From Clostridia bacterium (GTDB lineage Bacteria; Bacillota; Clostridia; Acetivibrionales; UBA4821): DNA of 64,000 nt. Position 1 is the first letter of the stretch, and the number at the start of each line of letters is the position of its first letter. The position numbers were made by a program, and so were the translations under genes. The DNA is taken from NCBI GenBank assembly GCA_041687355.1, contig JAWLCD010000010.1, positions 2,371 to 66,370 of the forward strand, read 5' to 3'. A model generated the notes under the pieces. That model had not been told where the DNA came from and searched no databases. It saw only the letters and a program-made list of their open reading frames with translations. This document shows positions 1,021-60,084 of the stretch, piece after piece.

Positions 1021-1067
1021 TTAGGTAGGTGGACGCGGCCATTCGCTTCGCTCAAGGAACTTCCCCC
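1021..1067 (+). repeat. RepE copy E1
   Basis: TTAGGTAGGTGGACGCGGCCATTCGCTTCGCTCAAGGAACTTCCCCC. Lies immediately 5' of the RepB left arm. Confidence 0.75.
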
Positions 1068-1076
1068 TTTGATTAA

Positions 1077-1334
1077 GGAAAATGAATTAACTGGCGAATA
1101 AGTTTATGGAGAGATCCAAATGCTATCGGGTAGCCCAGGGCATACAGCTGGGACTTGTGCCCAGCCAAAGCCCGGGCCTACAATTATGCTTAAATTTCAG
1201 GAAGAATTTACAGGACGTCAATTCTAGGAATTATTGAGCCAGGACGGCGAATTAATTCCGGTCTGAAATTTAGTATAACAAGCATCTAGTTTATCTTGAT
1301 TTCGTAATCCTTATGAGTGGCTAATTTATATTCC
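1077..1334 (+). repeat. RepB copy B1 (long hairpin arms 1077-1116 / 1286-1334) enclosing RepD (1117-1185) and RepC copy C1 (1186-1285)
   Basis: Arms GGAAAATGAATTAACTGGCGAATAAGTTTATGGAGAGATC and CTAGTTTATCTTGATTTCGTAATCCTTATGAGTGGCTAATTTATATTCC are imperfectly complementary. Confidence 0.8.
1186..1285 (+). repeat. RepC copy C1 (100 nt, predicted three-way junction)
   Basis: Outer stems ATGCTT/AAGCAT and AAATTTCAG/CTGAAATTT enclose the hairpins GAATTTAC..GTCAATTC and GGAATTATT..AATTAATTCC. Confidence 0.75.
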
Positions 1335-1370
1335 TAAAATATTTCAAAATACTGCACAAGTCAAACTAAA

Positions 1371-1405
1371 AATCTCGATTGACCTCAATCAATCGAGATT
1401 TTTTT
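1371..1405. terminator. bidirectional intrinsic terminator (sigA 3' end)
   Basis: AATCTCGATTG-ACCTCAAT-CAATCGAGATT, flanked by an A-run and a T-run. It abuts the sigA stop codon. Confidence 0.85.
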
Positions 1406-2483
1406 AATCAAGGTAATCCTTTAGCTTCTTGCTCCTACTGGGATGCCTCAGCTTTCTCAGTGCCTTTGCCTCAATCTGTCTGATTCTTTCCCTTGTTACA
1501 TTAAATTCCTTTCCAACCTCTTCAAGGGTTCTTGCACGTCCATCATCCAGTCCGAACCTGAGTCTAAGTACCTTCTCCTCTCTCGGAGTCAGTGTATCAA
1601 GTACGTCAATCAATTGTTCCTTAAGCAGGGTAAACGCTGCAGCCTCTGAAGGAGCAGGCGCATCATCATCAGGTATAAAATCACCCAAATGGCTGTCCTC
1701 TTCTTCACCTATAGGAGTTTCAAGTGACACGGGCTCCTGAGCTATCTTGAGGATTTCCCGTACCTTTTCGACCGAAAGGCCCATTTCATTAGCAATTTCT
1801 TCAGGCTGTGGCTCCCGTCCAAGCTCCTGTAGAAGCTGTCTTGAAACCCTGATAAGCTTATTTATTGTTTCAACCATGTGGACAGGAATCCTTATAGTTC
1901 TTGCCTGGTCAGCGATGGCTCTAGTAATTGCCTGCCTTATCCACCATGTAGCATAGGTACTGAATTTATATCCTTTTGTATAATCAAATTTTTCTACTGC
2001 CTTTATTAACCCAAGGTTACCCTCCTGAATCAAATCCAGGAAAAGCATCCCCCTACCGACATATCTCTTCGCAATACTGACAACAAGTCTGAGGTTGGCT
2101 TCAGCAAGTCTCCTTTTGGCCTCGGTATCACCCATCTCCATTTTCCTTGCGAGGTCAATCTCCTCTTCAGCAGAAAGAAGCGGTACTTTGCCTATTTCCT
2201 TGAGATACATCCTGACTGGGTCATCAATGCTAACCCCTTCAGGAACAGACATATCTTCAAGTTCCTCTTCGGTGAGCTGTAAATCCTCCAGTTCGGCTTC
2301 GATGTCTCCAATTATATCAATACCTACATTCTCCAGGGTATCATATATTTTTTCAATCTGATCGGGGTCAAGGTCTATTTCTTCAAGAGCATCCATAATT
2401 TCTTTATAGGTAAGCATTCCCTTTGCTTTGCCTCTCTCAATCAGCTCTTTTATTATAGCCTTTTTGCCTTCATTACCACTCAC
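1404..2483 (-). CDS. sigA: RNA polymerase primary sigma factor (sigma-70/SigA)
   Basis: 359 aa. Region 2 [19 protein letters not shown] and region 4.2 [20 protein letters not shown]. Lies downstream of dnaG, as in the Firmicute dnaG-sigA operon. Confidence 0.97.
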
Positions 2484-4320
2484 TGTTCACGCCTCCTTTC
2501 TGCATTGGTTTTTTCATAGCTCCAAGTGCAAATGTTAGTGTTTTTAATTCTTCATCCAATTTTCTCAATTCCTCAGCATTAATATTTTTTTCTTTCATCT
2601 GAACATGCAGTTCATGTATTCTGGCCTCAATCTTGCCTCTTTCAACTGTTCCCAGGAGTTCATCGGCAACCTTGTAATTATCTTCAAAATTGTTCTCACC
2701 CTGCATTATTTCTGAAAACAAATTTATTTCTTCCTGTTCTTCAAGCCTGTTCAGTATTTCTGAATGAGTGACTTCACCCAGTTGGTCATAAGCCTTAACT
2801 ATCTTCTCAACAATACATTTCCCGGGTTCCCATCTGAAATCATCAGGTTTAATCTTCTTACTGATGTATCCGAAGAGTTCCTTGTCTCCGAGGCTCATTA
2901 AAGCAATCAGCATTTTCTCGGTCTGTATGATTCTACGGTCCAACCTATTTTCTGTTTTGGCAGTTCTTGGTCTTTCTATCCTGGCATTCTCGGGAACCCT
3001 GAACCGCACCTTGTTCCTGCCATGTACCTGTTTGCTTATCTCTGCATATATCGGTTCAACAGCTATTCCGGTTTCCTCGGATATTTTCCTTACATAAGCA
3101 TCTCTTTCAATATTGTTCTGTACTTTGGCCAGCACTGCTGCCATTTTGTTTAAAAATCCAATCTTTCCTCTTACATCGTTTAAATCATGTTGTTCCTTGA
3201 GAATGTCAATCTTAAACTCAGCCAGGGATTTTGCTGATTTAACCAAATCCCTGAACAGCTTAACCCCTTTTTTCCTTACTAATTCATCAGGGTCTTTAGC
3301 ATCAAGGAGCTTTATAACCCTGACCGGTATTCCCATATCATTCAGGAGGTCCAATCCTCTCACTGCAGCATTCTGGCCTGCCGTATCGGCATCAAAGGAT
3401 ATTATTATTTCATCAAAATACTTCCTGAGCAGCCTACCCTGCTCCTGTGTAAAAGATGTCCCAAGAGATGCAGCTGCATTTTCAATCCCATGCTGGTACA
3501 GAGATATTACATCCATATATCCTTCCACTACAATTACTTTTTTCTCATTCGACTTCTTGGCCAGATTGAGGCCGTAAAGGTTTTTTCTTTTGTTGAACAC
3601 CAAGGTTTCAGGTGAGTTCAAATATTTAGGCATGGAATTGTCCAGTACTCTTCCACCAAACCCTATAACCCTGTCCCTGACATCAAGGATAGGAAAAATA
3701 ATTCTTGCTCTGAATTTATCATTTAAAATATTCCTTTTACTTTTATATGCCAGTCCAGCCTCAACTATTTCTTCTTCACCAAATCCTTTTAATTTCAGCA
3801 GGCTGGCAAGGTCATTATTTATTCCAAAAGCAAAGCCAAGTCCGAATCTCTTAATTATATCTGTAGAAATACCCCTGTCTTTCAGGTACCTTAATGCATC
3901 TGCAGCTTTTGAATCATTCAGGTTCTGGTGAAAATACCTGGCAGCTTCAAGGTTCATTTCCAGAATACGCTGTTTCAGTCTGACCTTTTCAGGTTGGGCG
4001 GCCATATCTCCTTCTTCAGGCAAATGCATTCCAACCCTTTCAGCAAGGTGTCTTACCGATTCCACAAATTCAAGGTTTTCTATTCTGCTGATAAAGTGGA
4101 ATACGTTGCCCCCTGTACCACATCCGAAACAATAATATATCTGCTTCTCAGGAGATACAGAGAATGAAGGAGTTTTCTCTGTATGGAAAGGACACAGACC
4201 GAAATAATTTCTCCCGCTTCGCTTTAACCTTACATATTCGGATATAACATCAACTATATCGTTGGAGCTTTTTACCTCTTCCAGGAGCTCATCTGAAAAA
4301 TAACCTGACATTAAAGACAC
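2473..4320 (-). CDS. dnaG: DNA primase
   Basis: Zinc-finger motif [26 protein letters not shown] and TOPRIM EGYMDV. Overlaps sigA by 11 nt. The ATG at 4311 is an alternative start. Confidence 0.95.
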
Positions 4321-4605
4321 CCAAAATCCTTATCGCTGAATAACGGGCATCAACAGCTTCTGCCCGGAATTCATAATACTTGGCTTCTTTTTCTATTAGT
4401 ACACTTCGACAAAATTAAAATATTTCCTCCTTGACATAAAAATTATAAGTATTAATTAATTTACAGTAAAATTTTATGTACAAAACCTATTTTATATTCG
4501 ACAAGTTAAATTTGTTTTCCTTCTTTTTATTCAAATATTTTCAAGCTTATTTTTAACTTAATTTTACATTTTTATACCAATCCCTTCAGTTCCCCGACTT
4601 CCAAC

Positions 4606-6165: not shown

Positions 6166-6300
6166 ATAAACAGGATTCTTGGATTCAGGTGGAGTTTTTT
6201 TCTCCATCTGAATCTTAGAAGCCGTTATCCAGGGGCGTAGCGCCGCTTAGCTCCCGCTTGAAGAAGAGGGAGTCTTAGCGGCGGTAGTCATCGGATAAAA
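6166..6300 (+). repeat. RepA copy A1 (core only, 135 nt)
   Basis: ATAAACAGGATTCTTGGATTCAGGTGGAG...CTCCATCTGAATCTTAGAAGCCGTTATCCAGG..GTAGCGCCGCTTAG..GGAGTCTTAGCGGCGGTAGTCATCGGATAAAA. Sits in the divergent gap upstream of ldcA. Confidence 0.9.
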
Positions 6301-7258: not shown

Positions 7259-7286
7259 ATATTTAGAGTATTGAACCTATACGTAT

Positions 7287-7325
7287 CGTGACGTGGCCAT
7301 TCACTTCGTTCAAGGAACTTCCCCC
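7287..7325 (+). repeat. RepE copy E2
   Basis: CGTGACGTGGCCATTCACTTCGTTCAAGGAACTTCCCCC, 5' of B2. Confidence 0.75.
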
Positions 7326-7334
7326 TTTGGTTAA

Positions 7335-7412
7335 GGGAAATGAATTAACTGGAGAATAAGTTTATGGAGAAATCTGATTTCGTAATCCTTATGAGCTGTT
7401 AATTTATTTCCC
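7335..7412 (+). repeat. RepB copy B2 (minimal form; arms joined at the GAAATC-T-GATTTC palindrome)
   Basis: GGGAAATGAATTAACTGGAGAATAAGTTTATGGAGAAATCTGATTTCGTAATCCTTATGAGCTGTTAATTTATTTCCC. Confidence 0.8.
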
Positions 7413-7424
7413 TGTATATAAGAT

Positions 7425-7464
7425 AAAGGGGCACGGCTACTCGCTCCGCTCAAGGAGCTTCCCC
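7425..7464 (+). repeat. RepE copy E3 (diverged)
   Basis: AAAGGGGCACGGCTACTCGCTCCGCTCAAGGAGCTTCCCC, 3' of B2. Confidence 0.65.
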
Positions 7465-7487
7465 ACTCTCCACAAGTCAAATAAGCA

Positions 7488-7526
7488 AATAAAAAAACCT
7501 TTAGCAGTTATGCCTGCTATAGGTTT
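7488..7526 (-). terminator. terminator of the coaD-downstream coiled-coil gene
   Basis: AAACCTTTAGCAG-TTATGC-CTGCTATAGGTTT. On the minus strand it is followed by UUUUUUU. Confidence 0.8.
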
Positions 7527-7546
7527 CCTTCTATACAAACCAAAAT

Positions 7547-7984
7547 TTATCTCAATTCTTCTCTGTTGATGCGTATTGTATCTATAGTATCTCTTAGTAT
7601 ATCCTCAAGCTTTGCGAGAACTTCATCGGCATATTCCTTGGCGCCCTGGTGGTACTCCCTTGCTGTGTTGTGAGCATTTTCCACAATCTCCTCAGCCTTC
7701 TCCATAGCCATCTTGGTAATCTCATGCTCGTCAACCATGGACATGATTCTGCTTTCCGTATCCTTTATGACATTGTCTGCTTCTTTCTGAGCTTCATGCA
7801 GTATCCTGTGTCGTTCTTCCTTTACCCACTTAGCTTGTTTTATCTCGTCCGGCAGCTTTAATCTTATTTCCTTAATAATATCAAGTACATCATCCTTCTC
7901 CACCACGGTCTTGCCCCATATCGGTACGGTAAAACTCCTTTCGAGAATATCCTCAATTGTTTCCAACAATGCCATAATGTCCAT
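7547..7984 (-). CDS. coiled-coil protein of unknown function (ATP-synthase-b/DivIVA-like heptads)
   Basis: 145 aa, highly charged and helical. Directly downstream of coaD, with a terminator hairpin at 7494-7526. Confidence 0.5.
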   Translation of the reverse strand: MDIMALLETIEDILERSFTVPIWGKTVVEKDDVLDIIKEIRLKLPDEIKQAKWVKEERHRILHEAQKEADNVIKDTESRIMSMVDEHEITKMAMEKAEEIVENAHNTAREYHQGAKEYADEVLAKLEDILRDTIDTIRINREELR

Positions 7985-7988
7985 GGCT

Positions 7989-8477
7989 TTACCCCTTTCC
8001 TACACGAAATTTATCAAGTACTCTATTCTTAATGATTTCAGGTACAAATTCGTCGATGTTCGCGCCAAGACTTGCCAGTTCCCTGACTATGCTTGAACTA
8101 AGATAAGAGTATTTACTGTTGGTCATCATAAATATGGTTTCAATATCAGCGTCCAGATTCTTATTCAGTAGAGCCATCTGAAACTCATATTCAAAATCTG
8201 TGACAACCCTTAGTCCCTTTACTATCACATTTGCCTTCTTCTGATTCATATAGTCTATCAGAAGCCCTTTAAAACTGTCAACCTCTATATTTGGATTTCC
8301 TGATATGCAGGCCTTAATCAAATCCACTCTTTCATCAAGTGAGAAGGCAGCCTGCTTATTGGAATTAACCAAAACAGCTATAATGAGTCTGTCAAAAATC
8401 TTTGATGCCCTTTCAATGATGTCCATATGACCTTTTGTTATGGGGTCAAAACTTCCTGGATATACACATACCTTCAA
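7989..8477 (-). CDS. coaD: phosphopantetheine adenylyltransferase
   Basis: 162 aa with [21 protein letters not shown] (T/HxGH nucleotidyltransferase motif). Confidence 0.95.
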
Positions 8478-8482
8478 ATCGA

Positions 8483-9040
8483 TTACTCCTTAATCTTCCT
8501 ATAGAAGTTCAGAGCTGTCCTACCATAGCCCCTTTCGTCCACCCTTTTCAAGCAGTTCAATGTCTCGGGCAGAATATCCTTCTGTTCATTTTCAATCACA
8601 ATTATACCATCAGTTCTTATTAGGTTAAAGTATATCAGTAATTCAACGGCCTTATACTCAAAACCCTTGCCATATGGTGGGTCAAGAAATACCAGGTCGT
8701 ATTTTCTTTTCATCCCTGCAATTCTTCTCAATCCATCTTCAAAATTGCTCAGGTATACCTCTGCCTGTTCAGCAAACCCTGTATGCTGAAGATTGGATTT
8801 AACAACCGAAACGCATTCCCTGTTCCTGTCTATAAATGTCACAAATTGTGCGCCTCTGCTTAAAGCTTCTATTCCCAGTGCGCCCGTACCTGCAAACAGG
8901 TCAAGAACATGAGCATCGCATACAATCGGCCTTATTATGTTGAACAGTGACTCTTTAATCCTGTCAGCCGTTGGTCTCACAGCTTGTCCTTTTACCGATT
9001 CAAGCCTGAGCCCTCCGGCCTTTCCCGAAATTACTCTCAA
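8483..9040 (-). CDS. rsmD: 16S rRNA (guanine966-N2)-methyltransferase
   Basis: 185 aa with [32 protein letters not shown] and DPPY. Conserved rsmD-coaD pairing. Confidence 0.93.
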
Positions 9041-9063
9041 GAAACACCACCAATAGCCATTCT

Positions 9064-9307
9064 ATAAACAGGATTCTAAGATTCAGGTGGAGTTTTGGCT
9101 AATAATTTCTTGTTATCTTTGATAACTTAGAAATCATTGTCCACCTTGTGTGCTCCAACTGAATCTTAGAATCCGTTATCCAGGAACGTAGCACCGCCGT
9201 AGACTACTAGTCGCTTGATTTCGAAGAAATCTTAGCGATAGTGTCCATCTTTGATGCTCCCACTTGAATGAGAGGGGAGTCTTAGCGGTGGTAGTCATCG
9301 GATAAAA
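9064..9307 (+). repeat. RepA copy A2 (244 nt; 54-nt modules in both hairpin apices: 9101-9154 and 9203-9256)
   Basis: Same core as A1 plus two insertions. Lies between rsmD and pdp. Confidence 0.9.
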
Positions 9308-9401
9308 ATCCTACTGATTATTTTATAATACATCTGGGAAATGTCAATTGTTTTTAGTTAAACCTTAGCTTGATTATGGAGATTCCCCCTTGTGATTTGA
9401 G

Positions 9402-9473
9402 AGGAAATGAATTAACCGGCGAATAAGTTTACCTTGATTTCGCAGTCCTTATGAGCGGTTAATTTACTTTCCC
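9402..9473 (+). repeat. RepB copy B3 (minimal form)
   Basis: AGGAAATGAATTAACCGGCGAATAAGTTTACCTTGATTTCGCAGTCCTTATGAGCGGTTAATTTACTTTCCC. Confidence 0.8.
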
Positions 9474-9529
9474 TGACTGATAAGAAAAAGGAGCTAAGGG
9501 TGCAATCCTTAACTCCTTCAGCATTAATT

Positions 9530-10834
9530 TCAAGATATAACATCAACAATCAGCGGCATCGGTTCAGGCTTTCTTTCATCTATTGTATACGCTCCCACAA
9601 TCAGTTCCTGGGCCGGCTGCACCCTGTGTTCATGATTGGAATACATCCAGGCCAACGTATCTCCCGCCTTAACCTCATCTCCGATTTTCTTCTCAAGTAC
9701 TATCCCAACATTGAGTTCAATCTCAGAATCCTTGGTTTCCCTTCCAGCTCCAAGCAGCATGGAGGCAACCCCTATAGAGTCGGTCTTCATTTTGGTTATA
9801 TAGCCGTCTCTGGGAGCCTTTACAGGAAGTTTAAGCCTTGCTTCGGGGAACAATGAAGGGTCATCAACCACCTTCACGTCACCTTCCTGATTAATTACCA
9901 TTTCCCTGAATTTCTCAAATGCCTTACCGTTATCCAGCAGACCTTTCAACTCCTCTTTAATCGCATCTATATCCTGTGTCCTGCCTGAGAGTTTGAGCAT
10001 GTATGCTCCAAGGACCAGACAGAGCTCTTCCAGGTCTTTGGGTCCTTTCCCTTTAAGAGTTTGGATAGCTTCCTTCACTTCAAGCGTATTGCCTACTGCA
10101 TATCCCAGGGGCTGGTCCATGTTTGACACCACTGCTACTGTATTCCTCTTCAGGTTTTTTCCTATACTCACCATAACTTTCGCCAGTTCCTTTGCATGGC
10201 TCAGTACTCTCATAAAAGCACCACTGCCGGTTTTCACATCCAGCACTATGGCATCGGCTCCACCGGCAATCTTTTTGCTCATTATACTACTGGCTATCAA
10301 GGGAATACTGCCTACAGTCGCAGTTACATCCCTCAGTGCATAGAGCTTCTTGTCGGCAGGTACCAGGTTTCCGGTCTGACCGGCCAGTGCAATCTTTATA
10401 CGATTGACTCCATCAATCAGCTTATGCATGGGAATATCCGTCCTGAACCCGGGTATGGATTCAAGCTTGTCTATTGTCCCGCCGGTATGGCCAAGGCTCC
10501 TTCCCGACATTTTAGCCACAGGTATGCCTGCCGCAGCTACAAGTGGAGCAACAATCAGTGTAGTTTTGTCACCTACTCCCCCCGTACTGTGCTTGTCTAC
10601 CTTTATTCCCTTTATTTCTGATAAATCAACCATGTCTCCCGATTGTGCCATCTGTATTGTAAGTTCAGCAGTCTCACCCTGATCCATGCCATTCAGGTAT
10701 ATGGCCATCATAAGAGCAGAGGCCTGGTAATCAGGAATTTTGCCGCTGCTGAAGCCGGAGATAAAAAATTTAATTTCATCAGGAGTTAATTCCTTGCCAT
10801 CCCTTTTCTTTTCAAGAATATCGTACATTCTCAT
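9530..10834 (-). CDS. pdp: pyrimidine-nucleoside phosphorylase
   Basis: Contains [12 protein letters not shown] and [16 protein letters not shown]. Start moved to the ATG at 10834 ([13 protein letters not shown]), which has an AGGGGG RBS. The longer ORF would overlap yraN. Confidence 0.93.
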
Positions 10835-10845
10835 AACATTACCCC

Positions 10846-11214
10846 CTAGAAGGCGTTTTTGAGCAGGTTTATATCCATACATTTCCTGCCTTCCTTACTA
10901 TTATCCATCATTACTTCAACAACGTCAAACCTAAAATTGGTGTTGACCAGTTTCTTTAGTGCCAGATAAGTCTGTGCAACCTTTATCAGCGTTTTCTGTT
11001 TTTTCAGGTTTACTGATTCAGCCGGAAAACCATAGTGAGAGTTACTTCGGGTCTTAACCTCAATAAACACAATATACTGTCCATCCATGCCGATAATATC
11101 AATCTCACCAAGCCTGCATCTGAAGTTGGTTTGTAGAATCCTGTATCCCCTGGTCTTTAAGTATTCAGCAGCTGCTTTTTCTCCGGCCTTTCCCAGTTCA
11201 GTCCTGTAAGCCAT
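10846..11214 (-). CDS. yraN: YraN family (UPF0102) endonuclease-like protein
   Basis: Contains [32 protein letters not shown] and VFIEVKTR. Start at 11214 has a GGGAGAAGGA RBS. Confidence 0.88.
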
Positions 11215-11491
11215 ATTTTCCTTCTCCCTTAAGCTTATCAATATCGCTCACAAATACCAGAATCTCTGCAACAATCTCGTACAGTTCCTCCGGGATTTCG
11301 TCTCCGATTGAAAGTGTGTTCAAAATATGTGCAAGCTCTGGATTCTCGTATACAGGTACATTATTGTTCTGTGCAGTTTCAAGAATCTTCTCGGCAATTT
11401 CACCCTTCCCCAGAGCTACGACTTTCGGTGCTGATTCATCCGTATTATACTTTAGAACTGCCGCCTCTTTAATCTTCTTTTTCTGCTCCAT
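11198..11491 (-). CDS. ylqH: FlhB C-terminal-domain-like protein (EscU/YscU/HrcU family, YlqH-type)
   Basis: 97 aa with AAVLKYNTDESAPKVVALGKGEIAEKILETAQNNNVPVYENPELA...IGDEIPEELYEIVAEILVFV. No TM region and no NPTH site. Confidence 0.88.
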   Translation of the reverse strand: MEQKKKIKEAAVLKYNTDESAPKVVALGKGEIAEKILETAQNNNVPVYENPELAHILNTLSIGDEIPEELYEIVAEILVFVSDIDKLKGEGKYGLQD

Positions 11492-11493
11492 GT

Positions 11494-13119
11494 TTACACC
11501 CTCATATCAAACGAAAGTCTTTTAGTCCTGCCACTCAGAACCAGAACCTTATCCATCTCCGGCAGGCCAGTCTTTTTCTGAATAATCCCACAGTCAATAT
11601 TAACTATACTGTATCCCTTCTGGTTCAAGGCCTCTACCAAACTTGTTGTATTCTCCCTGATGAGCGAAGCAATCTCTTCATCCTGCACCCTGAAAGTAAA
11701 TCCTACAGCTCTGCCTGTGAGATTCACAAGCACCTCAGTCAGGCCTATGTTGGGCATCTGAAGTGACATTAGAATACTTGCATTGGATGGGTCAATTTTT
11801 TTTCGGGATTTTTTGAGAATATACAGCTCGCCGTTGGTATGCTGCCCCCAAATGTTAAGTGGTATTTGTATGAAAGTATTGTACTGGCTCATGCTGTTCA
11901 TGAACCTTATATTCTCCTCGGCCTGCCCGGTAAGCGCAAGCATTTCGTTCCTGCCTTCCCCTGTAGATAACACTCCCTTAAGGATATCCAGTTTAACAAG
12001 TATTTCCTTATACGAAGCACTGACCTGGAGGTCTTTTGCCAGGGTTTCAGATTTATTGCTTACAAAGTGCTTTTCAAATACCGCCTTAATCTCTTCCCTG
12101 ACATGTTCGGTACTGGCCCTGACTTCAGGTTGTTTTAAGTCAGTTTTATATATTTCTTCAGTCTTAATTTTCAATATTTGCTGGAACAGATTTTTTAGAG
12201 CTTCAGGCAGTTTGCCCAGAAAATTCTGGACACCATTTGGCTCAATGTTGTTAATCTGTTGTTTGAGCTGGTGGGTATTGAGATTATTAATCTCGCTTCG
12301 TATTTCAGGCAAACCATTTTTAATTTGCTGGTCAATACTATCAAGTAAAGCCTGCTTGATTGCCGGCAGGATGTCTTTACCGATTTGCGTCAAGGCCTCT
12401 GAACCCTGCGATTGTCCACTGGTCTGCAGCCCCTGTACTTCTTTATGCAAAGCAGCAGCCGTATGTCCAACTGCTGAGTTTTTCTTTGGAAGAGCTGAAA
12501 GTTTTTCGTACAGCATCACTATTTCAGTTTCGCTTAAATTGTCAATCAGATTAGTTATTGCCCTTAGCTGATTTCCCAGTACTGCCTTACCTTCTGTATA
12601 TTGGGCAAGCATGCCTATACTCTTCTCATTAGGCTCAATTCCCCTGCAAGTCAGGAATACAGCTTTCTGAACATCGAGTCCAGGGTTCTTTGAAATATGG
12701 TTAAGAACTGCTTGGACTCTTTCCCTGGTTACAGGCAGTTCGCGGGCTGTCAGTTCGTTAATTATTTCAACATTTCTCGGATTATTGGATAGATTCAGAG
12801 ACGCTAGAAGGCTATTTAACTGCTCCCTGCTCAGAGCACTTAATGAATTGCCAGGATTACTCTTCAGTGTTTCGATAAAGATTTTTCCGTCCCTTTTTTC
12901 ATTTATGATAAAGTCGACTACCTTTCCTTCCGTGAGTTCCAATGGAATCAGCATATTGGCAGTTACCGGTTTTCCTTCACCTATAGAGAGAATAACCTCA
13001 CTTCCTGATTTGCTAACAACCTGAGCACGGATAACATCTCCAACCTTGGCCTTTGCCAGTAATTTACCGGCCTCGAGTTCAAGTATATGTGCAATGGGTC
13101 TCAAACCATTAACCTTCAT
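11494..13119 (-). CDS. FliK-like (flagellar hook-length-control C-terminal domain-like) protein, YlqG-position
   Basis: 541 aa with a low-complexity, Q/N/S-rich middle. The C-terminal region (NIWGQHTNGELYIL...LVNLTGRAVGFTFRV) resembles Flg_hook. Adjacent to the FlhB-like gene. Confidence 0.6.
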   Translation of the reverse strand: MKVNGLRPIAHILELEAGKLLAKAKVGDVIRAQVVSKSGSEVILSIGEGKPVTANMLIPLELTEGKVVDFIINEKRDGKIFIETLKSNPGNSLSALSREQLNSLLASLNLSNNPRNVEIINELTARELPVTRERVQAVLNHISKNPGLDVQKAVFLTCRGIEPNEKSIGMLAQYTEGKAVLGNQLRAITNLIDNLSETEIVMLYEKLSALPKKNSAVGHTAAALHKEVQGLQTSGQSQGSEALTQIGKDILPAIKQALLDSIDQQIKNGLPEIRSEINNLNTHQLKQQINNIEPNGVQNFLGKLPEALKNLFQQILKIKTEEIYKTDLKQPEVRASTEHVREEIKAVFEKHFVSNKSETLAKDLQVSASYKEILVKLDILKGVLSTGEGRNEMLALTGQAEENIRFMNSMSQYNTFIQIPLNIWGQHTNGELYILKKSRKKIDPSNASILMSLQMPNIGLTEVLVNLTGRAVGFTFRVQDEEIASLIRENTTSLVEALNQKGYSIVNIDCGIIQKKTGLPEMDKVLVLSGRTKRLSFDMRV

Positions 13120-13160
13120 ACCAGCACCCCACAGTCAGTTAAAGCATTTAGCTTACCTAT

Positions 13161-13335
13161 ATAAACAGGATTCTTGGATTCAGGTGAAGTTTCTCCAACT
13201 GAATCTTAGAAGCCGTTATCCAGGAACTTATCGCCGCTTAGATTACTAGTCGCTTGATTTCAAAGAAATCTTAGCGATAGTGTCCATCTTTGATGCTCCC
13301 GAAGGGAGTCTTAGCGGCGGTAGTCATCGGACAAA
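13161..13335 (+). repeat. RepA copy A3 (175 nt; 54-nt module in hairpin 2 at 13242-13295)
   Basis: Lies between the FliK-like gene and rnhB. It contains the rnhB stop codon. Confidence 0.9.
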
Positions 13336-14031
13336 TCTTCTGGTGAAGCTCCTTCTATGTAATGGACATAAGCCCTTTCGTCTTATTGCTTCAATATGCT
13401 CTGCCGTACCATATCCCTTGTGCCTGGCAAATCCGTAGCCTTCATGTATTTTATCAATTTCTATAATCATTCTGTCTCTTGTAACCTTTGCAATTATGGA
13501 TGCAGCAGCAATGGACTGACTCAATGAGTCGCCTCTTACCATTGGTTTCTGCGGTACTTCTATATCTTCAAGACTTTCAGCATCAATAAACAGCACTTCG
13601 GGCTTAACCTCAAGCTGCTCCACAGCCTTCCTCATTGCAAGCCTGGTTGCGTTTAATATGTTTATTTCATCTATAATATTATTATCGACAATTCCAACTC
13701 CCCAGGCCACTGCTTCCCTTACAATAACATCAAACAATTCTTCCCTTTTCTTTTCACTTAATTTCTTCGAGTCATTGACCCCTTCTATCAATAAACCCTT
13801 TGGAAGTATGACGGCAGAAGCAACAACTGGGCCAGCAAGTGGCCCTCTACCTGCCTCGTCAATTCCGGCGATATATGTTATTCCATTGAGGTATTCTTCA
13901 TCCTCATACTGCATCAGTTTATGCAGCCTGTCCAGCTCTTTCTGTAGATACTTGCTGCCCTCTTTTGACCTTGTAGTAGTCTTTATTAGCTTATACTCCA
14001 CTTTTATCCCCCAATACTTCAGGCTCTTCAA
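13324..14031 (-). CDS. rnhB: ribonuclease HII
   Basis: Contains IAGIDEAGRGPLAGPVVASAV and DSKKLSEKKRE. The stop codon lies inside the 3' end of RepA copy A3. Confidence 0.94.
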   Translation of the reverse strand: MKSLKYWGIKVEYKLIKTTTRSKEGSKYLQKELDRLHKLMQYEDEEYLNGITYIAGIDEAGRGPLAGPVVASAVILPKGLLIEGVNDSKKLSEKKREELFDVIVREAVAWGVGIVDNNIIDEINILNATRLAMRKAVEQLEVKPEVLFIDAESLEDIEVPQKPMVRGDSLSQSIAAASIIAKVTRDRMIIEIDKIHEGYGFARHKGYGTAEHIEAIRRKGLCPLHRRSFTRRFVR

Positions 14032-14863
14032 GAGAAATTCTGCCTAGTTTGCCGTTCCTGAACTCGTCAAGAAGTATTAATGCTGCCCTTTCAAAGTCAA
14101 CTTCCCCACCTGAAACTAGACAGCCTCTTTTCTTCCCGATAAGTTTTACTATATCATATCCACATAGACCTTCAAGGCTATCAAGCTTATACCTTTGGAT
14201 AAGGTTCTTCTCATACCGTTCTCTAAGGTTTTCGGCCAGCTTAACTGCAAGTTCAGCGGTGTCAATAATCTCCGACCTTATAGCCCCTGTCCCTGCCAGA
14301 TTGACTCCTACTTCCGGACTATCAAATTTAGGCCATAGGACGCCAGGAGTATCCATAATCTCTATTCCCTGTCCTGCCTTTACCCACTGTTTCTTCCTTG
14401 TAACGCCCGGCTTATTTGCGGTCGCTGCCGCAGCTCTGTTAGCCACCTTATTTATGTAAGAAGACTTTCCAACATTGGGTATGCCCAGAACCGCTATTCT
14501 TATTGGCCTTCCTATCCGGCCTTTACTGGCGCTCAAATCTAATTTATCCTTCATTATTTCCCTTACTGAGCGTTCGAGCTCTTTCAAGCCCTTTCCGGAG
14601 ACCGAATCAACTGCAACAGCAGGATACCCCTTGCCGTTAAAGTATTGTATCCACTTTCGGGTTACTGGCTCTTCTGCCAAGTCTGACTTGTTGAGTGCTA
14701 TAATCCTTGGCTTGTCCCCTGCAATTTCATCCATATCCGGATTCTGACTGCTGTTAGGAATACGGGCATCAAGAAGCTCAACCACAACATCTACCAGTTT
14801 AAGATTTTCCTTTATCTCTTTTTTGGCCTTAACCATATGGCCGGGAAACCAGTTAATATTCAT
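13991..14863 (-). CDS. rbgA: ribosome biogenesis GTPase A
   Basis: Circularly permuted GTPase with NKSDL, GIPNVGKSS and DTPG. Begins MNINWFPGHMVKAKKE. Confidence 0.95.
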   Translation of the reverse strand: MNINWFPGHMVKAKKEIKENLKLVDVVVELLDARIPNSSQNPDMDEIAGDKPRIIALNKSDLAEEPVTRKWIQYFNGKGYPAVAVDSVSGKGLKELERSVREIMKDKLDLSASKGRIGRPIRIAVLGIPNVGKSSYINKVANRAAAATANKPGVTRKKQWVKAGQGIEIMDTPGVLWPKFDSPEVGVNLAGTGAIRSEIIDTAELAVKLAENLRERYEKNLIQRYKLDSLEGLCGYDIVKLIGKKRGCLVSGGEVDFERAALILLDEFRNGKLGRISLEEPEVLGDKSGV

Positions 14864-14886
14864 TCATTTATACCCCTAATTCTTCC

Positions 14887-14911
14887 GTGACAGGGGACGG
14901 TTCTCTGTCAC
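14887..14911. repeat. RepH hairpin H1 (stem GTGACAG/CTGTCAC, loop GGGACGGTTCT)
   Basis: GTGACAGGGGACGGTTCTCTGTCAC. Exact reverse complement of H2. Confidence 0.85.
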
Positions 14912-14926
14912 ATTTCTTTAACGAAC

Positions 14927-14951: not shown

Positions 14952-14968
14952 GTTTTAAGAAAAGAAAA

Positions 14969-49508: not shown

Positions 49509-49553
49509 AAGGTAGGGGGACGCGACCATTCGCTTCGCTCAAGGAACGTCCCC
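49509..49553 (+). repeat. RepE copy E4 (best stem GGGGACG/CGTCCCC)
   Basis: AAGGTAGGGGGACGCGACCATTCGCTTCGCTCAAGGAACGTCCCC, 5' of B4. Confidence 0.75.
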
Positions 49554-49610
49554 TTCTGATTATAGGGAAGATGAATTTAACTGGCGAATAAGTTTGCGGA
49601 GAAATCTTAG

Positions 49611-49741
49611 ATAAACAGGATTCTTGGGTTCAGGTGGAGTTTTGGCTCCAACTGAATCTTAGAAGCCGTTATCCAGGGACGTAGCGCCGCTTTTCTATAA
49701 TATTAAAGCTGGAGTCTTAGCGGCGGTAGTCATCGGATAAA
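49611..49741 (+). repeat. RepA copy A5 (core only, 131 nt), nested inside RepB copy B4
   Basis: The core sequence is flanked by the RepB left arm and RepC. Confidence 0.9.
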
Positions 49742-49753
49742 TTATGCGAAGTT

Positions 49754-49853
49754 ATGCTCAAATTTCAGGAAGAATTGACAGGACGTCAATTCTAGGAATT
49801 ATTGAGCCACGATGGCGAATTAATTCCGGTCTGAAATTTAGTATAACAAGCAT
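49754..49853 (+). repeat. RepC copy C2
   Basis: Differs from C1 at only a handful of positions. Confidence 0.75.
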
Positions 49854-49958
49854 CTAGTTTATCTTGATTTCGCAGTCCTTATGAGTTGCTAATTCATTTT
49901 CCCTAACTAATGAATTACCCCTTAATCACATTATATGACCTGCGTATCGGGAGGGTTC

Positions 49959-50137
49959 ATAAACAGGATTCTTGGATTCAGGTGGAGTTTTTGGCTCCAT
50001 CTGAATCTTAGAAGCCGTTATCCAGGGACGTAGCGCCGCTTAGACTACTAGTCGCTTGTTTTCAAAGAAATCTTAGCGATAGTGTCCATCTTTGATGCTC
50101 CCGAGGGGAGTCTTAGCGGCGGTAGTCATCGGATAAA
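49959..50137 (+). repeat. RepA copy A6 (179 nt; 54-nt module in hairpin 2 at 50044-50097)
   Basis: Core plus module. Lies just upstream (on the + strand) of the yebC terminator hairpin. Confidence 0.9.
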
Positions 50138-50145
50138 CTGCAAAA

Positions 50146-50187
50146 GGACAGGAACAGTAGCACAATATTGTGATACTGTTCCTGTCC
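50146..50187 (-). terminator. yebC terminator
   Basis: GGACAGGAACAGTA..TACTGTTCCTGTCC (14-bp stem plus an inner palindrome). On the minus strand it is followed by UUUUGCAGUUU. Confidence 0.8.
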
Positions 50188-50221
50188 CCCTGACATAAAA
50201 GGCTAAAATGTATGCTTACCC

Positions 50222-51126: not shown

Positions 51127-52410
51127 ATGTTGTCGAAGAAGGCTCCGCGCGTCTTACCACTGAAGATGGCACTAATGGTTAAGGATGTGAATCAGAAAGG
51201 TCAGGATTTTCTCAAGGTGTATTATGAACTGGAGGATTTATTCATGGAACTTTCCTTCTTGGAGGAAGAATCCCTGAATGCCCTTGACGACCAATACCTA
51301 CCGGAGAATTTCAATTTTGAAAATGAGTTGAACCGGCTGTATTCACGCTCAGTAGAGAAGCTTAATGAGTGGCGGGAAGCCTTAAACTCTCTGCGCCCCG
51401 AATACAAGGAATGGGCCTCCATGCAAAGCAGTATATCGCCTTCACTTAAGTTGAATGACCACATAGACATTTTTGAACCCTCACTGGAATCAATAGTAAT
51501 TGACTCCCGGCAGCTTCTTAAATCTATCAATGGATATGTTGGTGCAAGTGATGATGTTACTGCGCTTAAAAATTTACCACCTCATACGGTGACTGCTGAT
51601 GAACTTCGGTCTGAAATAAACCCTCTATTAGAATCGGCAAATACCAGACAGGAAAAAGCAGATGTATCTATTGATAAGCTGTATTTTTTCCGCGACCTGC
51701 TGCTCAATATACATTCGGTTAATGACTTCAACGCTTTCACCAGCTTGATGGATTTATTCGATGAAATTTGTTTTGCTGTGGAGGATGATTGGGGAGCATA
51801 CTATGAAGCGGTCGAGCAATTGCACTTGCGTGTTTACGAGTGGGCAACTCCTCAGCAGAAATGGAATCATCCGGTCATATCTGAGATTACGTTCCGTGCC
51901 GCCCCACACGCAGGTTTTCTAGAAACCAATCAGGTTCTAATAGACGTAATCAGCCAATGCAGCTCCCACTTTGAGAAACTGGAGAAAAGACTCAATGTTT
52001 CAAGTAAGGAAGAAAATCTTATCAGGTTCTTAACAAGACGTGCAGCTCATGAAAGGCATAACTTTCTCTCCTCAATGGAGAGACTGTATGATTTTTATAC
52101 TAAAATAAGCTGTCCGGATTCAGCTGTATATGAAGCTTCGTCCGATAACTGGAGTCATTATAGGACAGTGCGCCAAAACATTCTCAGAAACTACCGTGAC
52201 TTCAGAAAATACACACAAATGCTTATCGATAACTATAATAATGCTGTTGATTCAGGCCTAGCTTTACGAACTGCAAATTCCGTTCAGATTGAAGAACTGC
52301 TGAATTATTATAGGGGAAATATTATCTGCCTCAAGCGTAACATGAGGCGAATGCTCAGGTGGAGTAGAAAAAGAATTAAGAGGATGGAAGGAAGAAAATC
52401 TATTATATAA
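51127..52410 (+). CDS. hypothetical 427-aa helical protein (no recognisable domain)
   Basis: A GAAGGGGG RBS lies 7 nt upstream of the ATG. A terminator follows at 52420-52448. The C-terminal tail is basic (RRMLRWSRKRIKRMEGRK). Confidence 0.7.
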   Translation: MLSKKAPRVLPLKMALMVKDVNQKGQDFLKVYYELEDLFMELSFLEEESLNALDDQYLPENFNFENELNRLYSRSVEKLNEWREALNSLRPEYKEWASMQSSISPSLKLNDHIDIFEPSLESIVIDSRQLLKSINGYVGASDDVTALKNLPPHTVTADELRSEINPLLESANTRQEKADVSIDKLYFFRDLLLNIHSVNDFNAFTSLMDLFDEICFAVEDDWGAYYEAVEQLHLRVYEWATPQQKWNHPVISEITFRAAPHAGFLETNQVLIDVISQCSSHFEKLEKRLNVSSKEENLIRFLTRRAAHERHNFLSSMERLYDFYTKISCPDSAVYEASSDNWSHYRTVRQNILRNYRDFRKYTQMLIDNYNNAVDSGLALRTANSVQIEELLNYYRGNIICLKRNMRRMLRWSRKRIKRMEGRKSII

Positions 52411-52448: not shown

Positions 52449-52595
52449 AAATATCTCATCAAGTTGTTACGTTCTTCAGAAAATTATGATAGAATAGAAT
52501 ATAACATAAATTGGATTTATTGTTGATGTAGGATTCTATGTCAGGACGTTAGTGAAACCAAATAACAATTTTTGTTTGAAGGGAGGATGTTTAAA

Positions 52596-53087
52596 TTGTA
52601 CTCTAATGAACTGCAGCAATCCATGCGCTGTGAACCTGAGATACCCGGTCTGGGAACTACCAGCAGCATATGGTTCTATCTTAAACACCCTCTGAAGGCA
52701 GCAGATAAAAAAAGACATACACTTAAGCTGTTGATTGAGAGTACGAAGGTTTTCTGGCGCCATTTGGCCGTGTCACATTCAACTGACACTATAACAACTC
52801 TAAAAGATTTGACCGAACAGGTAGACAAGCAGGCTGTGCAATTCGAAACCGAATACGCATCCTATGTTTATTTATGTAGGTATATTGAATACGTATTCGG
52901 CCAATGGATTGGAACCGAGGAACATTTAAACTGCGGCGATTTCTGGGACATAAAGTATTCAGTTATCCACCATATTGAACCAGGAAAACTTAACGACGAG
53001 TTTAAAAAACATAATCAAGCCTGTAAAGAGGAACTGGAGAGGCTCAGAAGTATAATCAACAAAGATAAAATGGACAAATCATCATGA
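52596..53087 (+). CDS. hypothetical ~163-aa protein (no recognisable domain)
   Basis: The ORF opens at 52572. TTG at 52596 is 9 nt after GAAGGGAGG, and the ATG at 52587 is too close to the RBS. A terminator hairpin follows at 53107-53131. Confidence 0.55.
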   Translation: MYSNELQQSMRCEPEIPGLGTTSSIWFYLKHPLKAADKKRHTLKLLIESTKVFWRHLAVSHSTDTITTLKDLTEQVDKQAVQFETEYASYVYLCRYIEYVFGQWIGTEEHLNCGDFWDIKYSVIHHIEPGKLNDEFKKHNQACKEELERLRSIINKDKMDKSS

Positions 53088-56782: not shown

Positions 56783-56827
56783 AAGGTAGAGGGACGCGTC
56801 ATTCGCTTCGCCCAAGAAACGTCCTCC
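56783..56827 (+). repeat. RepE copy E5
   Basis: AAGGTAGAGGGACGCGTCATTCGCTTCGCCCAAGAAACGTCCTCC, in the cbiM-cbiQ gap. Confidence 0.75.
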
Positions 56828-56837
56828 TTGATTACCA

Positions 56838-56874
56838 TGGTCACACCATTCACTTCACTCAAGGAACTTCCCCC
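56838..56874 (+). repeat. RepE copy E6
   Basis: TGGTCACACCATTCACTTCACTCAAGGAACTTCCCCC, in tandem with E5. Confidence 0.7.
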
Positions 56875-56896
56875 TTTGATTAAATGAGTCAATCTG

Positions 56897-58120: not shown

Positions 58121-58156
58121 GCTATTATATTATGGCTTTATATTCCTGTCAATATA

Positions 58157-58189
58157 CAAAAAAACAGACAAACACCCGTCTGTTTTTTG
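58157..58189. terminator. bidirectional-type terminator between the pseudo-PP2C gene and the fur-like operon
   Basis: AAAAAAA-CAGAC-AAACACCC-GTCTG-TTTTTT. Confidence 0.8.
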
Positions 58190-58234
58190 TGCATGGTTAC
58201 TAATGTCTGCCTGCTAAGTCAATATGTTTACAAA

Positions 58235-59881
58235 TCAATCTTTTATTCTCATAACAACAAAGGCGATATCAGAATCTATATAACTACCGGACAGTGCCCT
58301 TGTCATATTATGTGTTATGTTTTCTTCAACTTCAACCAGAGGCTTATCATGTCTTGCTTTCAGGGTCTCTTCCACAACCCTTAAAATACTTTGCTCAATA
58401 TCTGAAGGCGTATCCGGGCTGCACCCAGGAAAAAAGACAACCAACTGCTTTCCTTTAAGCGTCAGTTTTCCTTCGGTAATCCTTTGGGACTGGTCTTCCC
58501 CAGCATTTCGCTGTTCACTGCCTTTAAGTTCAATTAGCCTGAAACCTGTTTGAGGATCAAATACCATAATGCTGTTCCGTGTACCTGTATATGCGTATAC
58601 TAAAGAATTCAGGTCAGGGTTATATGAAGCCAGCATGAGGGAAATATCATTCTCAACCTTCAGTTCATCGTAGTGCTTTAGTACTTTTTCCAGCACCCGC
58701 TTAAGGGACAGCCCGTTGAGTTCATGATTTGATATTACAGTCCTTATTGTTTGGTCAAGAAAAATCGAAAGCATTGTTGAAGGAATACCACGGCTGGATA
58801 TGTTTCCGGTTAGAATCCCTATGCTATTGTTATCCAGGTGTATCAAGTCGTAGAATTGCCCAGTGATTTCATTACCTGCAGCATACCTTGAATACATCTC
58901 TGCTGCTGCACAGTCTATGTGCTTCGCGGGAAGTATCATTTTTTTTATATCCCTGGCATATCCCAGGTCTATCAGTAGTTTCTCATTAACCTCCCTGATT
59001 TTTGCCGTCCCCTCCTCAACCAGTAACTTAAGGTCATTGGTATATCTACCCAAATCGGCCCGTGCATCCGCAAGCTGGGCATAGGGCTTTCTAACACTGA
59101 ACGTAAACATAGACTGAAACAACAGAAACCCAGCTGTAATCCGCAGCAGATGACCTATTACTTCATAGCTGTCTGTGACTGTGTAGTGCCCTGTGAATAG
59201 CGCCTCAACTACCACCTGAATAAAAACAGCCGCTGCCAGCATCTGCATCCCTGGTTCCCTTCTTCTGAAAAACTCCATTATATACTTGATAAGAGCAATT
59301 ATCAGAAATCCAATAACTATATATTGGCACACTTCAAGGTAAATCCCCATGGATTCACTTGGGAAGTTTAAGGCACCTTCCCTTATGGTTTGGGTTATAA
59401 ATAGAATATTAATAAATGTAACAAGTGTCAGAATCATGGTCCTTGAATAATACCGTTTGCTATCCATAGTGATGAATGCTGCAGCCAGAATTCCAATACC
59501 AAACAGCAGTCTTGCAGCCGCATATAATTTAAAGGCAGTATAATCTGAAGCGGCTAAGTGGCTATATACTGTTCCCTCATAGGTAAGGTTATGAAATACA
59601 TCTATAAGTGCTACATTTACCAGGACTACTCCTATTACTACGGTTCTTAAGTTCTTTGACCAGCTGTAAGAGTAGAAGGTAACCAGGAAAGTCATAATAT
59701 ATATGAATATGCATATACCTTCCAGTATACTATGTCCTGCCAAATAACCGGCTTCTGACTTAAACTTCTCAAAGAGAAAAACAGCAGGTATAATCACTGC
59801 TAATACCAAAGCAGCCAAAAAAACAAGTCCTCTGTATTCAACTGCAGTGTTTAACACATTATTTCTTTTAACTTCAGGCAT
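58235..59881 (-). CDS. membrane sensor (MASE3-like) with degenerate SpoIIE/PP2C domain (predicted pseudophosphatase)
   Basis: 548 aa with about 8 TM segments. The PP2C fold is present but the metal-binding Asp motifs are replaced: TGQFYD for GGDFxx, GNISSRG for GDVSGHG, FFPGCS for YTDGLV. Confidence 0.75.
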   Translation of the reverse strand: MPEVKRNNVLNTAVEYRGLVFLAALVLAVIIPAVFLFEKFKSEAGYLAGHSILEGICIFIYIMTFLVTFYSYSWSKNLRTVVIGVVLVNVALIDVFHNLTYEGTVYSHLAASDYTAFKLYAAARLLFGIGILAAAFITMDSKRYYSRTMILTLVTFINILFITQTIREGALNFPSESMGIYLEVCQYIVIGFLIIALIKYIMEFFRRREPGMQMLAAAVFIQVVVEALFTGHYTVTDSYEVIGHLLRITAGFLLFQSMFTFSVRKPYAQLADARADLGRYTNDLKLLVEEGTAKIREVNEKLLIDLGYARDIKKMILPAKHIDCAAAEMYSRYAAGNEITGQFYDLIHLDNNSIGILTGNISSRGIPSTMLSIFLDQTIRTVISNHELNGLSLKRVLEKVLKHYDELKVENDISLMLASYNPDLNSLVYAYTGTRNSIMVFDPQTGFRLIELKGSEQRNAGEDQSQRITEGKLTLKGKQLVVFFPGCSPDTPSDIEQSILRVVEETLKARHDKPLVEVEENITHNMTRALSGSYIDSDIAFVVMRIKD

Positions 59882-59895
59882 ACTCTTCTCCTCTG

Positions 59896-60084
59896 ATAAA
59901 CAGGATTCTTAGGTTCAGGTGGAGTTTTAGGCTAATAATTTCTTGTTATCTTTGATAACTTAGAAATCATTGTCCACCTTGTGTGCTCCGACTGAATCTT
60001 AGAAGCCGTTATCCAGGGACGTAGCGCCGCTTCTCCCTCACTTGAAGAAGAGGGGAGTCTTAGCGGCGGTAGTCATCGGATAAA
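59896..60084 (+). repeat. RepA copy A7 (189 nt; 54-nt module in hairpin 1 at 59934-59987)
   Basis: Fills the whole gap between the two PP2C genes. Confidence 0.9.

Follow-up and report, generated by a model that had tools for sequence, protein, structure and literature searches.

Orientation of repeats in a Clostridia genome segment

We analyzed a stretch of 64,000 nucleotides (nt) from a Clostridia bacterium (Acetivibrionales, UBA4821; contig JAWLCD010000010.1), hereafter the window, in which four families of interspersed repeats, RepA, RepB, RepC and RepE, lie among housekeeping genes (rpoD, rsmD, rnhB, ffh, rpsP, recO, ligA, era and yebC). The minus strand carries 52 of the 64 open reading frame (ORF) calls and 85% of the coding bases, and the GC skew of the plus strand is below zero in 16 of 16 bins of 4 kb (-0.09 to -0.26). 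Together, the negative skew and the minus-strand genes identify the plus strand as the lagging-strand sequence, and the minus strand as both the gene strand and the lagging-strand template.

Repeat copies were counted by repeat finding, by blastn with one seed per family, and with an unfiltered RepA covariance model run over the window. The three methods agree on 20 oriented copies, 19 on the plus strand and one on the minus strand (Table 1). Seven are RepA (six plus; the exception lies at 17292-17488), six are RepB units, two are RepC and five are RepE loci, the last three families all being on the plus strand; the first-pass annotation of this DNA had listed five RepB and six RepE. The covariance model found no hidden RepA copies anywhere in the window, and reverse-strand scores at the RepA sites are far lower (for example, 163.7 versus 31.4 bits). 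Thus, the earlier description of 19 of 20 copies pointing the same way, antisense to the minus-strand operons, is borne out by our recount of 19:1, and the skew and ORF strands agree with it. The inverted copy between rpsP and ffh had also been proposed as a natural control; it scores 83 bits and is intact, which shows that a sense copy can be tolerated at this site.

Table 1. Repeat copies and associated modules in the window.
Feature	Positions	Strand	Method or score
RepB unit, directly abutting the RepE 5' arm	1021-1075	+	repeat finding, blastn
RepE 5' arm, left inverted repeat and outer stem of the TwoAYGGAY element	1073-1116	+	blastn
Unique GC-rich hairpin module (-29 kcal/mol) between the RepE 5' arm and the TwoAYGGAY core	1113-1185	+	
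RepC, Rfam TwoAYGGAY (RF01731)	1178-1305	+	45.5 bits; gathering score 43
RepE 3' arm	1288-1343	+	repeat finding, blastn
RepA, basic 135-nt form	6166-6300	+	covariance model, 163.7 bits
RepB unit	7281-7333	+	repeat finding, blastn
RepE hairpin without core, arms joined	7331-7421	+	fold -28.9 kcal/mol on plus, -17.3 on minus
Diverged RepB unit, 3' side of RepE	7421-7473	+	repeat finding, blastn
RepA, extra modules in both hairpin loops	9064-9307	+	covariance model
RepE hairpin without core, RepB 3' fragment ahead of it; junction of AAGTTTAC and CTTGATTTCG	9398-9481	+	
RepA, module in hairpin 2; rnhB stop codon inside RepA	13157-13336	+	covariance model
RepA, only inverted copy, intact; between ffh stop and rpsP start, sense with both genes	17292-17488	-	83 bits
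RepE 5' arm fragment only, RepB-like remnant upstream	34855-34891	+	repeat finding, blastn
RepB unit heading the large composite	49510-49562	+	blastn
Composite E5'-RepA-TwoAYGGAY-E3', one closed multi-domain fold	49563-49911	+	-135.5 kcal/mol on plus, -108.6 on minus
RepA inserted at ATAAA within the TwoAYGGAY element	49610-49742	+	160.6 bits
RepC, Rfam TwoAYGGAY	49731-49878	+	Rfam covariance model, 56.8 bits
RepA, module in hairpin 2; abuts the hairpin at 50139-50194	49959-50138	+	covariance model
Two tandem RepB units filling the intergenic gap of cbiM-like and cbiQ-like genes	56783-56882	+	repeat finding, blastn
RepA, module in hairpin 1	59895-60085	+	covariance model, 91.4 bits

The unique module at 1113-1185 sits where the composite at 49.5 kb carries RepA, and no second copy of it was found in the window or in the relatives' loci examined. 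The basic RepA at 6166-6300 lies between divergent genes, its 3' end 26 nt upstream of the ATG of a plus-strand carboxypeptidase gene. The copy at 59895-60085 takes up the space separating two minus-strand sensor genes: it adjoins the upstream stop (0 nt) and is 14 nt away from the downstream start. The hairpin at 50139-50194 appears from its sequence to be the yebC terminator, and the terminator scan reported none there.

RepE and RepC form one TwoAYGGAY element

The repeats are three nested kinds of non-autonomous mobile elements, with extra modules in the hairpin loops of RepA. RepE and RepC together are a single element, in which RepE provides the terminal inverted repeats and RepC the core. 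Read from the plus strand, this element is the TwoAYGGAY motif of Rfam with an outer stem, and it usually lies against RepB units. The motif was described by Weinberg et al. 2010 (PMC2864571). RF01731 exceeds its gathering score (43 bits) at the two window sites, and in relatives it matches 12 copies (45-73 bits), always on the strand of the RepC orientation. The top scores in relatives (73 and 71 bits) come from E5'-C-E3' units without RepA, which identifies RepE as the outer stem of the TwoAYGGAY model.

The RepE arms are inverted repeats of about 18 nt (GGGAAATGAATTAAC...GTTAATTTATTTCCC), with GGGGAAATGAATTAAC as the arm sequence, and they pair into a long stem. Their flanks are A/T-rich (TTAA-like), and a clear duplication is not visible at the RepE ends. 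The loops here are ACAGGACG and CCAGGACGG or CCACGATGG; GGA occurs in three of the four, and each loop is 1 nt shorter than AYGGAY (A-GGAC). Copies of RepE without the core show two different junctions, and the one at 9403 is the exact product expected of a deletion between two GTTTAT repeats.

RepB is directly continuous with RepE at 1021-1116, 7281-7421 and 49510-49607, RepC is flanked by both RepE arms, and at 49.5 kb RepA also lies between these arms. This entire B-E5'-A-C-E3' block recurs as a unit in two other metagenome-assembled genomes (MAGs), with an identity of about 90%. RepB stands 5' of RepE in most composites and 3' of it in one locus of a relative (L009; L numbers denote such loci). 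Unit sizes range from about 50 nt (RepB, which is not palindromic) to 400 nt, and arrays are head-to-tail. An Rfam search of RepA, RepB and RepE at a permissive E-value returned only chance miRNA-like hairpins.

RepA folds on one strand and inserts at ATAAA

The basic form of RepA is 135 nt long and folds into two hairpins with 38 pairs, 94.7% of the cells being paired. Compensatory changes occur in 11 pairs, a value reached in none of 500 shuffles. Within the alignment, G-U cells (87) outnumber A-C cells (14), and this excess identifies the ATAAAC...GGATAAA strand as the folding strand, which folds at -68.7 kcal/mol compared with -53.5 kcal/mol for its complement. RNA and DNA energy parameters agree that the plus strand folds better for RepA, RepE, RepC and the whole composite. 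Pointing the same way has a physical meaning across RepA, RepE and RepC: the folding strand is the plus strand, and G-U (G-T) pairs cause the asymmetry.

RepA inserts at ATAAA, which is TTTAT on the other strand, with a duplication of 5 nt. This follows from empty/filled pairs and from matching rare variants of the pentamer. The cleanest pair is the TwoAYGGAY element itself, which reads TAG-ATAAA-CTATGCG without RepA and TAG-ATAAA-[CAGG...CATCGG]-ATAAA-(C/T)TATGCG with it. In consensus cases, an element that ends in ATAAA and inserts after ATAAA would look like a duplication; the rare variants (ATTAA/ATTAA, GTAAA/GTAAA) agree at both RepA ends (permutation p = 0.008). One RepA insertion took place inside a TwoAYGGAY element, and the resulting composite then spread.

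Head-to-tail arrays of RepA share the pentamer, and deletion forms of 39 nt occur. Such solo forms (ATAAACAGGATTCTTAGCGGTGGTAGTCATCGGATAAAC) lie at L005 2838-2876, L013 6590-6630, L018 5588-5626, L063 6325-6363 and in L074 (about 4310-4350), and they are the expected remainder of a deletion between the internal GGAKTCTTAG direct repeats. In Tindallia and Clostridiaceae (L007, L012, L013, L016, L019 and others), RepA often carries a 55-nt module after GTTATCC (ATAAGTAGATGGCCCAAATGTATCATTTGGTGGCAG...). The RepA 3' end is placed immediately ahead of the ribosome-binding site, 20-26 nt upstream of a start codon, in several genera.

Occupied and empty sites in related genomes

A scan with the RepA 3' core over one genome per species gave at least 79 loci, of which about 75 among those listed come from Clostridia MAGs. 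The hosts among the matches listed include Tindallia, several Clostridiaceae, Lutispora and others, with many copies per genome. The relatives' loci, of 8 kb or less each, were located via RepA, and composites without RepA are under-sampled among them.

The nearest relative among the data examined is the sister MAG 30dZY2.bin.108 (its Ffh and that of the window cluster together at 90% identity); its contig L080 is syntenic with about 7,500-19,000 of the window. The RepA copy at 13157 is missing from the orthologous L080 site (empty site CTAT-GCAAA-CCTCC), the copy at 9064 is missing save for a 16-nt 3' remnant (TAGTCATCAGATAAAA), and the RepB/RepE unit at 9340-9481 is missing as well. The gap between ffh and rpsP holds a different insert in the sister MAG, ending at the same point and showing no clear fold asymmetry; in a more distant relative the gap is 31 nt long, with a native ATAAA overlapping the ffh stop codon. 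Because the window and the sister MAG gained different inserts at exactly the same point, this point is an insertion hot spot. Two further orthologous loci, L005 and L063, were too decayed for their boundaries to be defined.

The ATAAA target encloses the ffh stop codon in the window (17481-17488) and at L088 9925-9945 alike. At 13324-13340 RepA has replaced the last codons of rnhB (RNase HII), and a TAA inside RepA now terminates the ORF; rnhB of the sister MAG ends in ...YQEVCI* just before the empty site. Where the window has RepB/RepE at 7281-7473, L080 carries a group II intron at 11293-11562 (Rfam D1-D4 domains, 95 and 61 bits), so a reverse transcriptase source exists in the sister lineage.

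No match pointing to a plasmid, phage or viral origin was found in PLSDB (72,556 plasmids), INPHARED phages or IMG/VR (two patterns). The 30 window proteins that were scanned include no transposase, of the Y1/HUH type or any other. When 573 ORFs from the surroundings of about 80 listed copies were clustered all against all, only generic families emerged, and no recurrent partner. An insertion sequence (IS) with RepE-like ends was not seen in the window or in the relatives' loci examined.

Multiple copies, inverted-repeat ends, variability between sister genomes and RepA insertions indicate that TwoAYGGAY here behaves as a mobile element resembling MITEs (miniature inverted-repeat transposable elements), rather than as a single small-RNA gene. 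This is a new point. A contrasting explanation is that the composites are genes for small RNAs (TwoAYGGAY RNAs, possibly CsrA sponges), with their own plus-strand promoter, RepB being the region upstream; lying antisense to the operons would in that case serve a function, such as their convergent or antisense regulation. The Rfam strand is plus in both window copies and agrees with the RepC orientation in 12 of 12 relatives' copies, G-U pairs and compensatory changes favor that strand, the usual place of RepB is 5' of RepE, and it has been proposed that CsrA binds TwoAYGGAY at its GGA loops (PMC4333381). We nevertheless consider small-RNA genes the less likely explanation, and doubt it: RepB also lies 3' of RepE (L009) or alone in tandem (56783-56882), head-on antisense promoters inside operons would be costly, and variability between sister genomes with a dozen or more copies per genome fits a mobile element better. 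Scans of the composites returned no convincing plus-strand promoter or terminator, and these scans are uninformative.

The polarity belongs mainly to TwoAYGGAY/RepB composites

The 20 window copies are not independent, as RepB and RepE are contiguous and RepC and one RepA lie inside RepE. Clustered into 10 loci, they split 9:1 (binomial p = 0.021, versus 4e-5 unclustered). Consequently, the strong bias reported by the first-pass annotation holds as a polarity, which is seen at the level of loci and recurs in the sister MAG, whereas its use of four families as independent trials was overstated, since they are nested or contiguous.

Relatives' loci were oriented by repeat and then scored against local GC skew, with repeats masked, and against flanking ORF directions. 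For the sister MAG and one Lutispora locus, the split is 21 loci for the C-rich and 7 for the G-rich strand (p = 0.013), and the insertion sites of the sister MAG differ from those of the window within the syntenic stretch compared. With the window included, the lineage total is 30:8 (p = 5e-4), the better-folding strand being C-rich and non-coding at 30 of 38 loci. Between co-directional flanking genes, a hand tally gave 17 antisense and 3 sense loci (p = 0.003).

This polarity is unevenly distributed among the repeats. Loci with RepE, RepC or RepB split 20:2 (p = 1e-4), whereas RepA-only loci split 10:6, which is not significant; the two groups differ at p = 0.05. Among the matches listed, RepA splits 12:7 in a Tindallia MAG (closest copies as much as 99% identical, median 91%), 2:4 in B5_bin.2 and 0:6 in LH_M71, a reversal that differs from the sister MAG at p = 0.002. 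A metagenome scan added seven RepA loci of mixed orientation, all from other low-GC taxa. The 20:2 split compared with 10:6, together with unbiased or reversed RepA elsewhere, shows that the polarity is a lineage property, mainly of TwoAYGGAY/RepB composites and not of the RepA family as such. Interspersed structured repeats and their orientation biases are already known kinds; the strength of the composite polarity is the new point. To our knowledge, it is stronger than any described for ERIC, Correia/NEMIS, BOX, RUP or SPRITE.

Could this pattern reflect chance combined with non-independence? Founder insertions, nesting and head-to-tail growth would then have produced the 9:1 split as a fluctuation. 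Nested and tandem copies are necessarily co-oriented, taken by itself the window yields p = 0.02, the RepA-only loci show no bias and other genera have no consistent polarity. Against this, the independent loci of the sister MAG repeat the bias (21:7), and the 20:2 composites lie at different genomic sites. We therefore regard chance as a less likely, indeed improbable, source of the polarity.

It is far more improbable that orientation follows the strand distribution of the asymmetric ATAAA/TTTAT target in intergenic DNA. By comparison with sites lacking RepA, the orientation of RepA is that of the strand with the RYAAA target; outside the repeats, though, the intergenic DNA of the plus strand holds 35 ATAAA and 34 TTTAT, and this count excludes target availability as the cause of the bias.

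Transcription and replication as possible sources of the polarity

Since the polarity holds up and recurs in a sister genome, the earlier question of a link to replication or to transcription is a fair one. At the 20 lineage loci between co-directional genes, the skew opposes the gene strand in none. As skew and gene strand coincide in these 8-kb loci, replication and transcription are not separable here. Nine loci have divergent or convergent neighbors; seven of these agree with the regional strand and two oppose it (7:2), a split that is suggestive and not significant (p = 0.18).

We hypothesize, with low confidence (a probability of roughly 0.35), that insertion is not strand-specific and that composites are retained in an orientation-dependent manner. 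Insertion is probably not strand-specific, because RepA-only loci and the RepA of other genera are unbiased or reversed. TwoAYGGAY/RepB composites would then be retained mainly where host mRNAs read through their complement, so the retained orientation would give an mRNA without the TwoAYGGAY fold and its two GGA hairpin loops. With about 85% of coding DNA on one strand, such a retention filter would appear as strand polarity. Orientation-dependent effects on transcripts are known for ERIC and boxB (PMC3049150).

Several points weigh against orientation-dependent retention. The single sense copy of RepA persists intact between ffh and rpsP, and a sense orientation is therefore not lethal as a rule; the earlier suggestion that one orientation alone is tolerated within transcripts is plausible and is weakened by this intact copy in an operon. 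RepA has the largest fold asymmetry (-68.7 versus -53.5 kcal/mol) and yet no significant bias; fold asymmetry alone is thus not the filter, and a sequence feature specific to the composites must be assumed. At least two composites (1021 and 49510) lie downstream of likely terminators, and the one gene from which transcription could enter the RepB/RepE unit at 7281 runs in sense with it. The relatives' loci were found via RepA, so RepA-less composites are under-sampled. Finally, the gene and replication strands are confounded, and the 7:2 split at divergent and convergent loci fits a link to replication equally well.

Replication-linked polarity is a possible alternative, nearly as likely as orientation-dependent retention, and it takes two forms. 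In one, insertion at the fork would be strand-specific, with an enzyme recognizing 5'-TTTAT-3' on the single-stranded lagging-strand template (the minus strand here). In the other, loss would depend on orientation, in that hairpins on the lagging-strand template would be deleted by slippage and copies exposing the weaker-folding strand would survive. The 30:8 polarity is measured relative to local GC skew, and at the nine divergent or convergent loci, where transcription polarity is absent, the 7:2 split follows the regional strand. Moreover, the majority orientation places both TTTAT and the weaker-folding strand on the lagging-strand template, and deletion derivatives are present (the 39-nt RepA joined at the TCTTAG repeat, the RepA remnant in L080 and the core-less RepE). 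For IS200/IS605 and certain other IS families, an orientation bias linked to replication has been documented (PMC5027513). The unbiased RepA-only loci (10:6) and the divergent ratios in Tindallia (12:7) and LH_M71 (0:6) speak against a link to replication, as does the 7:2 split, for which p is 0.18 and skew over 8 kb is a noisy proxy of replication direction.

The first-pass annotation had drawn an analogy to IS200/IS605 elements and REPs, which use one DNA strand at the fork. The elements do resemble IS200/IS605, its miniature derivatives and REP/RAYT in being small and hairpin-rich, with a fixed junction pentanucleotide, head-to-tail arrays and polarity in the lineage. Five observations tell against this analogy and also against a link to replication. 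First, empty/filled comparisons show RepA bounded by a duplicated 5-nt ATAAA, unlike peel-and-paste transposition. Second, the strand that folds is the C-rich one, which serves as leading-strand template; the IS200/IS605 (IS608) rule is the opposite, placing the active strand on the lagging-strand template (PMC5027513). This test assumes that the folding strand is the active strand. Third, the bias of RepA-only loci (10:6) is not significant. Fourth, polarity is not conserved across genomes, the RepA family being unbiased in Tindallia (12:7) and reversed in LH_M71 (0:6). Fifth, no Y1/HUH transposase gene was found in the 30 window proteins or recurrently near the roughly 80 listed copies. REPs proper are GC-rich palindromes of 20-40 nt in clusters of alternating orientation; RepA is far longer and forms no alternating BIME-like clusters, and none of these units has the REP form.

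Other features of the window

A further family of short hairpins has GGGGACGG/CCGTCCCC in its loops or stems (14886-15000, 32495-32529, 40999-41060, 44214-44221 and 59005-59012). These sequences occur eight times against 0.65 expected, two on the plus and six on the minus strand, and some of the hairpins are terminator-like. They are probably the unoriented 'RepD' of the first-pass annotation. The motif CAAGGAAC(C)GTCCCC is common to RepB and some of these hairpins. ORFs of 145-427 amino acids without a Pfam match lie at 51127-52410 (+), 43337-44173 (+), 52572-53087 (+) and 7547-7984 (-); the first and last of these were scanned against NCBIfam too, with no match.

Relation to known repeats and implications

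In its architecture, RepA is closest to the group A repeats bcr1-bcr3. The bcr1 repeat of the Bacillus cereus group is about 155 bp long, with two stem-loops, a 5-bp TTTAT direct repeat and variable presence; it shows compensatory changes, lies in untranslated regions and operons, and its transposase has not been identified (PMC3184786, PMC6199540, PMC3446304). RepA shares with this group its length (about 135 nt), two independent stem-loops, compensatory changes, the TTTAT direct repeat, placement in untranslated regions and within operons, and variability between relatives. It differs in occurring in several genera of Clostridia rather than in one species group, in carrying loop modules and in nesting inside another element. 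A blastn search of 72,556 plasmids with RepA found no match, an indirect indication that it lacks similarity to bcr1, as bcr1-bearing plasmids of the B. cereus group should be among those searched (PMC6542083). Judged on sequence, and given its Clostridia hosts, RepA is thus best described as an analogue of bcr1 and not a member. A family with bcr1-like architecture in several genera of Clostridia is a new point. No mention of strand polarity for bcr1 was found in a literature search, the primary bcr1 papers being outside its reach.

The TwoAYGGAY element has its closest counterparts among MITE-type repeats such as ERIC, Correia/NEMIS, BOX, RUP and SPRITE. The terminal inverted repeats of RepE, the long stem, the intergenic and intra-operon sites and the predicted structured transcripts are all shared with these, and for MITE-type repeats there are documented cases in which one orientation only alters the fate of the mRNA (PMC3049150). 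The TwoAYGGAY core with a nested RepA is a more elaborate modular architecture, and a cognate IS is not seen here. The element agrees with RF01731 itself in scoring above the gathering threshold on the plus strand (RepC with RepE) and in having two hairpins, GGA being present in three of the four loops; it differs in its shorter loops, in copy number (12 or more copies within the roughly 100 kb of relatives' DNA sampled), in its inverted-repeat boundaries, in its variable presence between sister genomes and in hosting RepA.

A more speculative possibility, which we consider unlikely, is that a host enzyme, or one not yet recognized, moves RepA/bcr1 and TwoAYGGAY in single-stranded form at the fork, reading TTTAT on the lagging-strand template. 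If true, the polarity would flip between replichores, and the movement of bcr-type repeats, listed in a review as uninvestigated (PMC6199540), would be explained. Interest in the finding would rise if closed genomes showed such a flip. The 20:2 split is a clean quantitative handle, with which closed genomes could assign the polarity to replication or to transcription.

For annotation it matters that a RepA insertion can alter the end of a gene, as in rnhB, and fill an operon spacer. Our results also recast TwoAYGGAY, an orphan Rfam family, as an element in these genomes, which is relevant to its proposed role as a CsrA-sponge small RNA. Finally, they extend bcr1-type repeats from one Bacillus species group to several genera of Clostridia, providing more material for finding the enzyme that mobilizes them.

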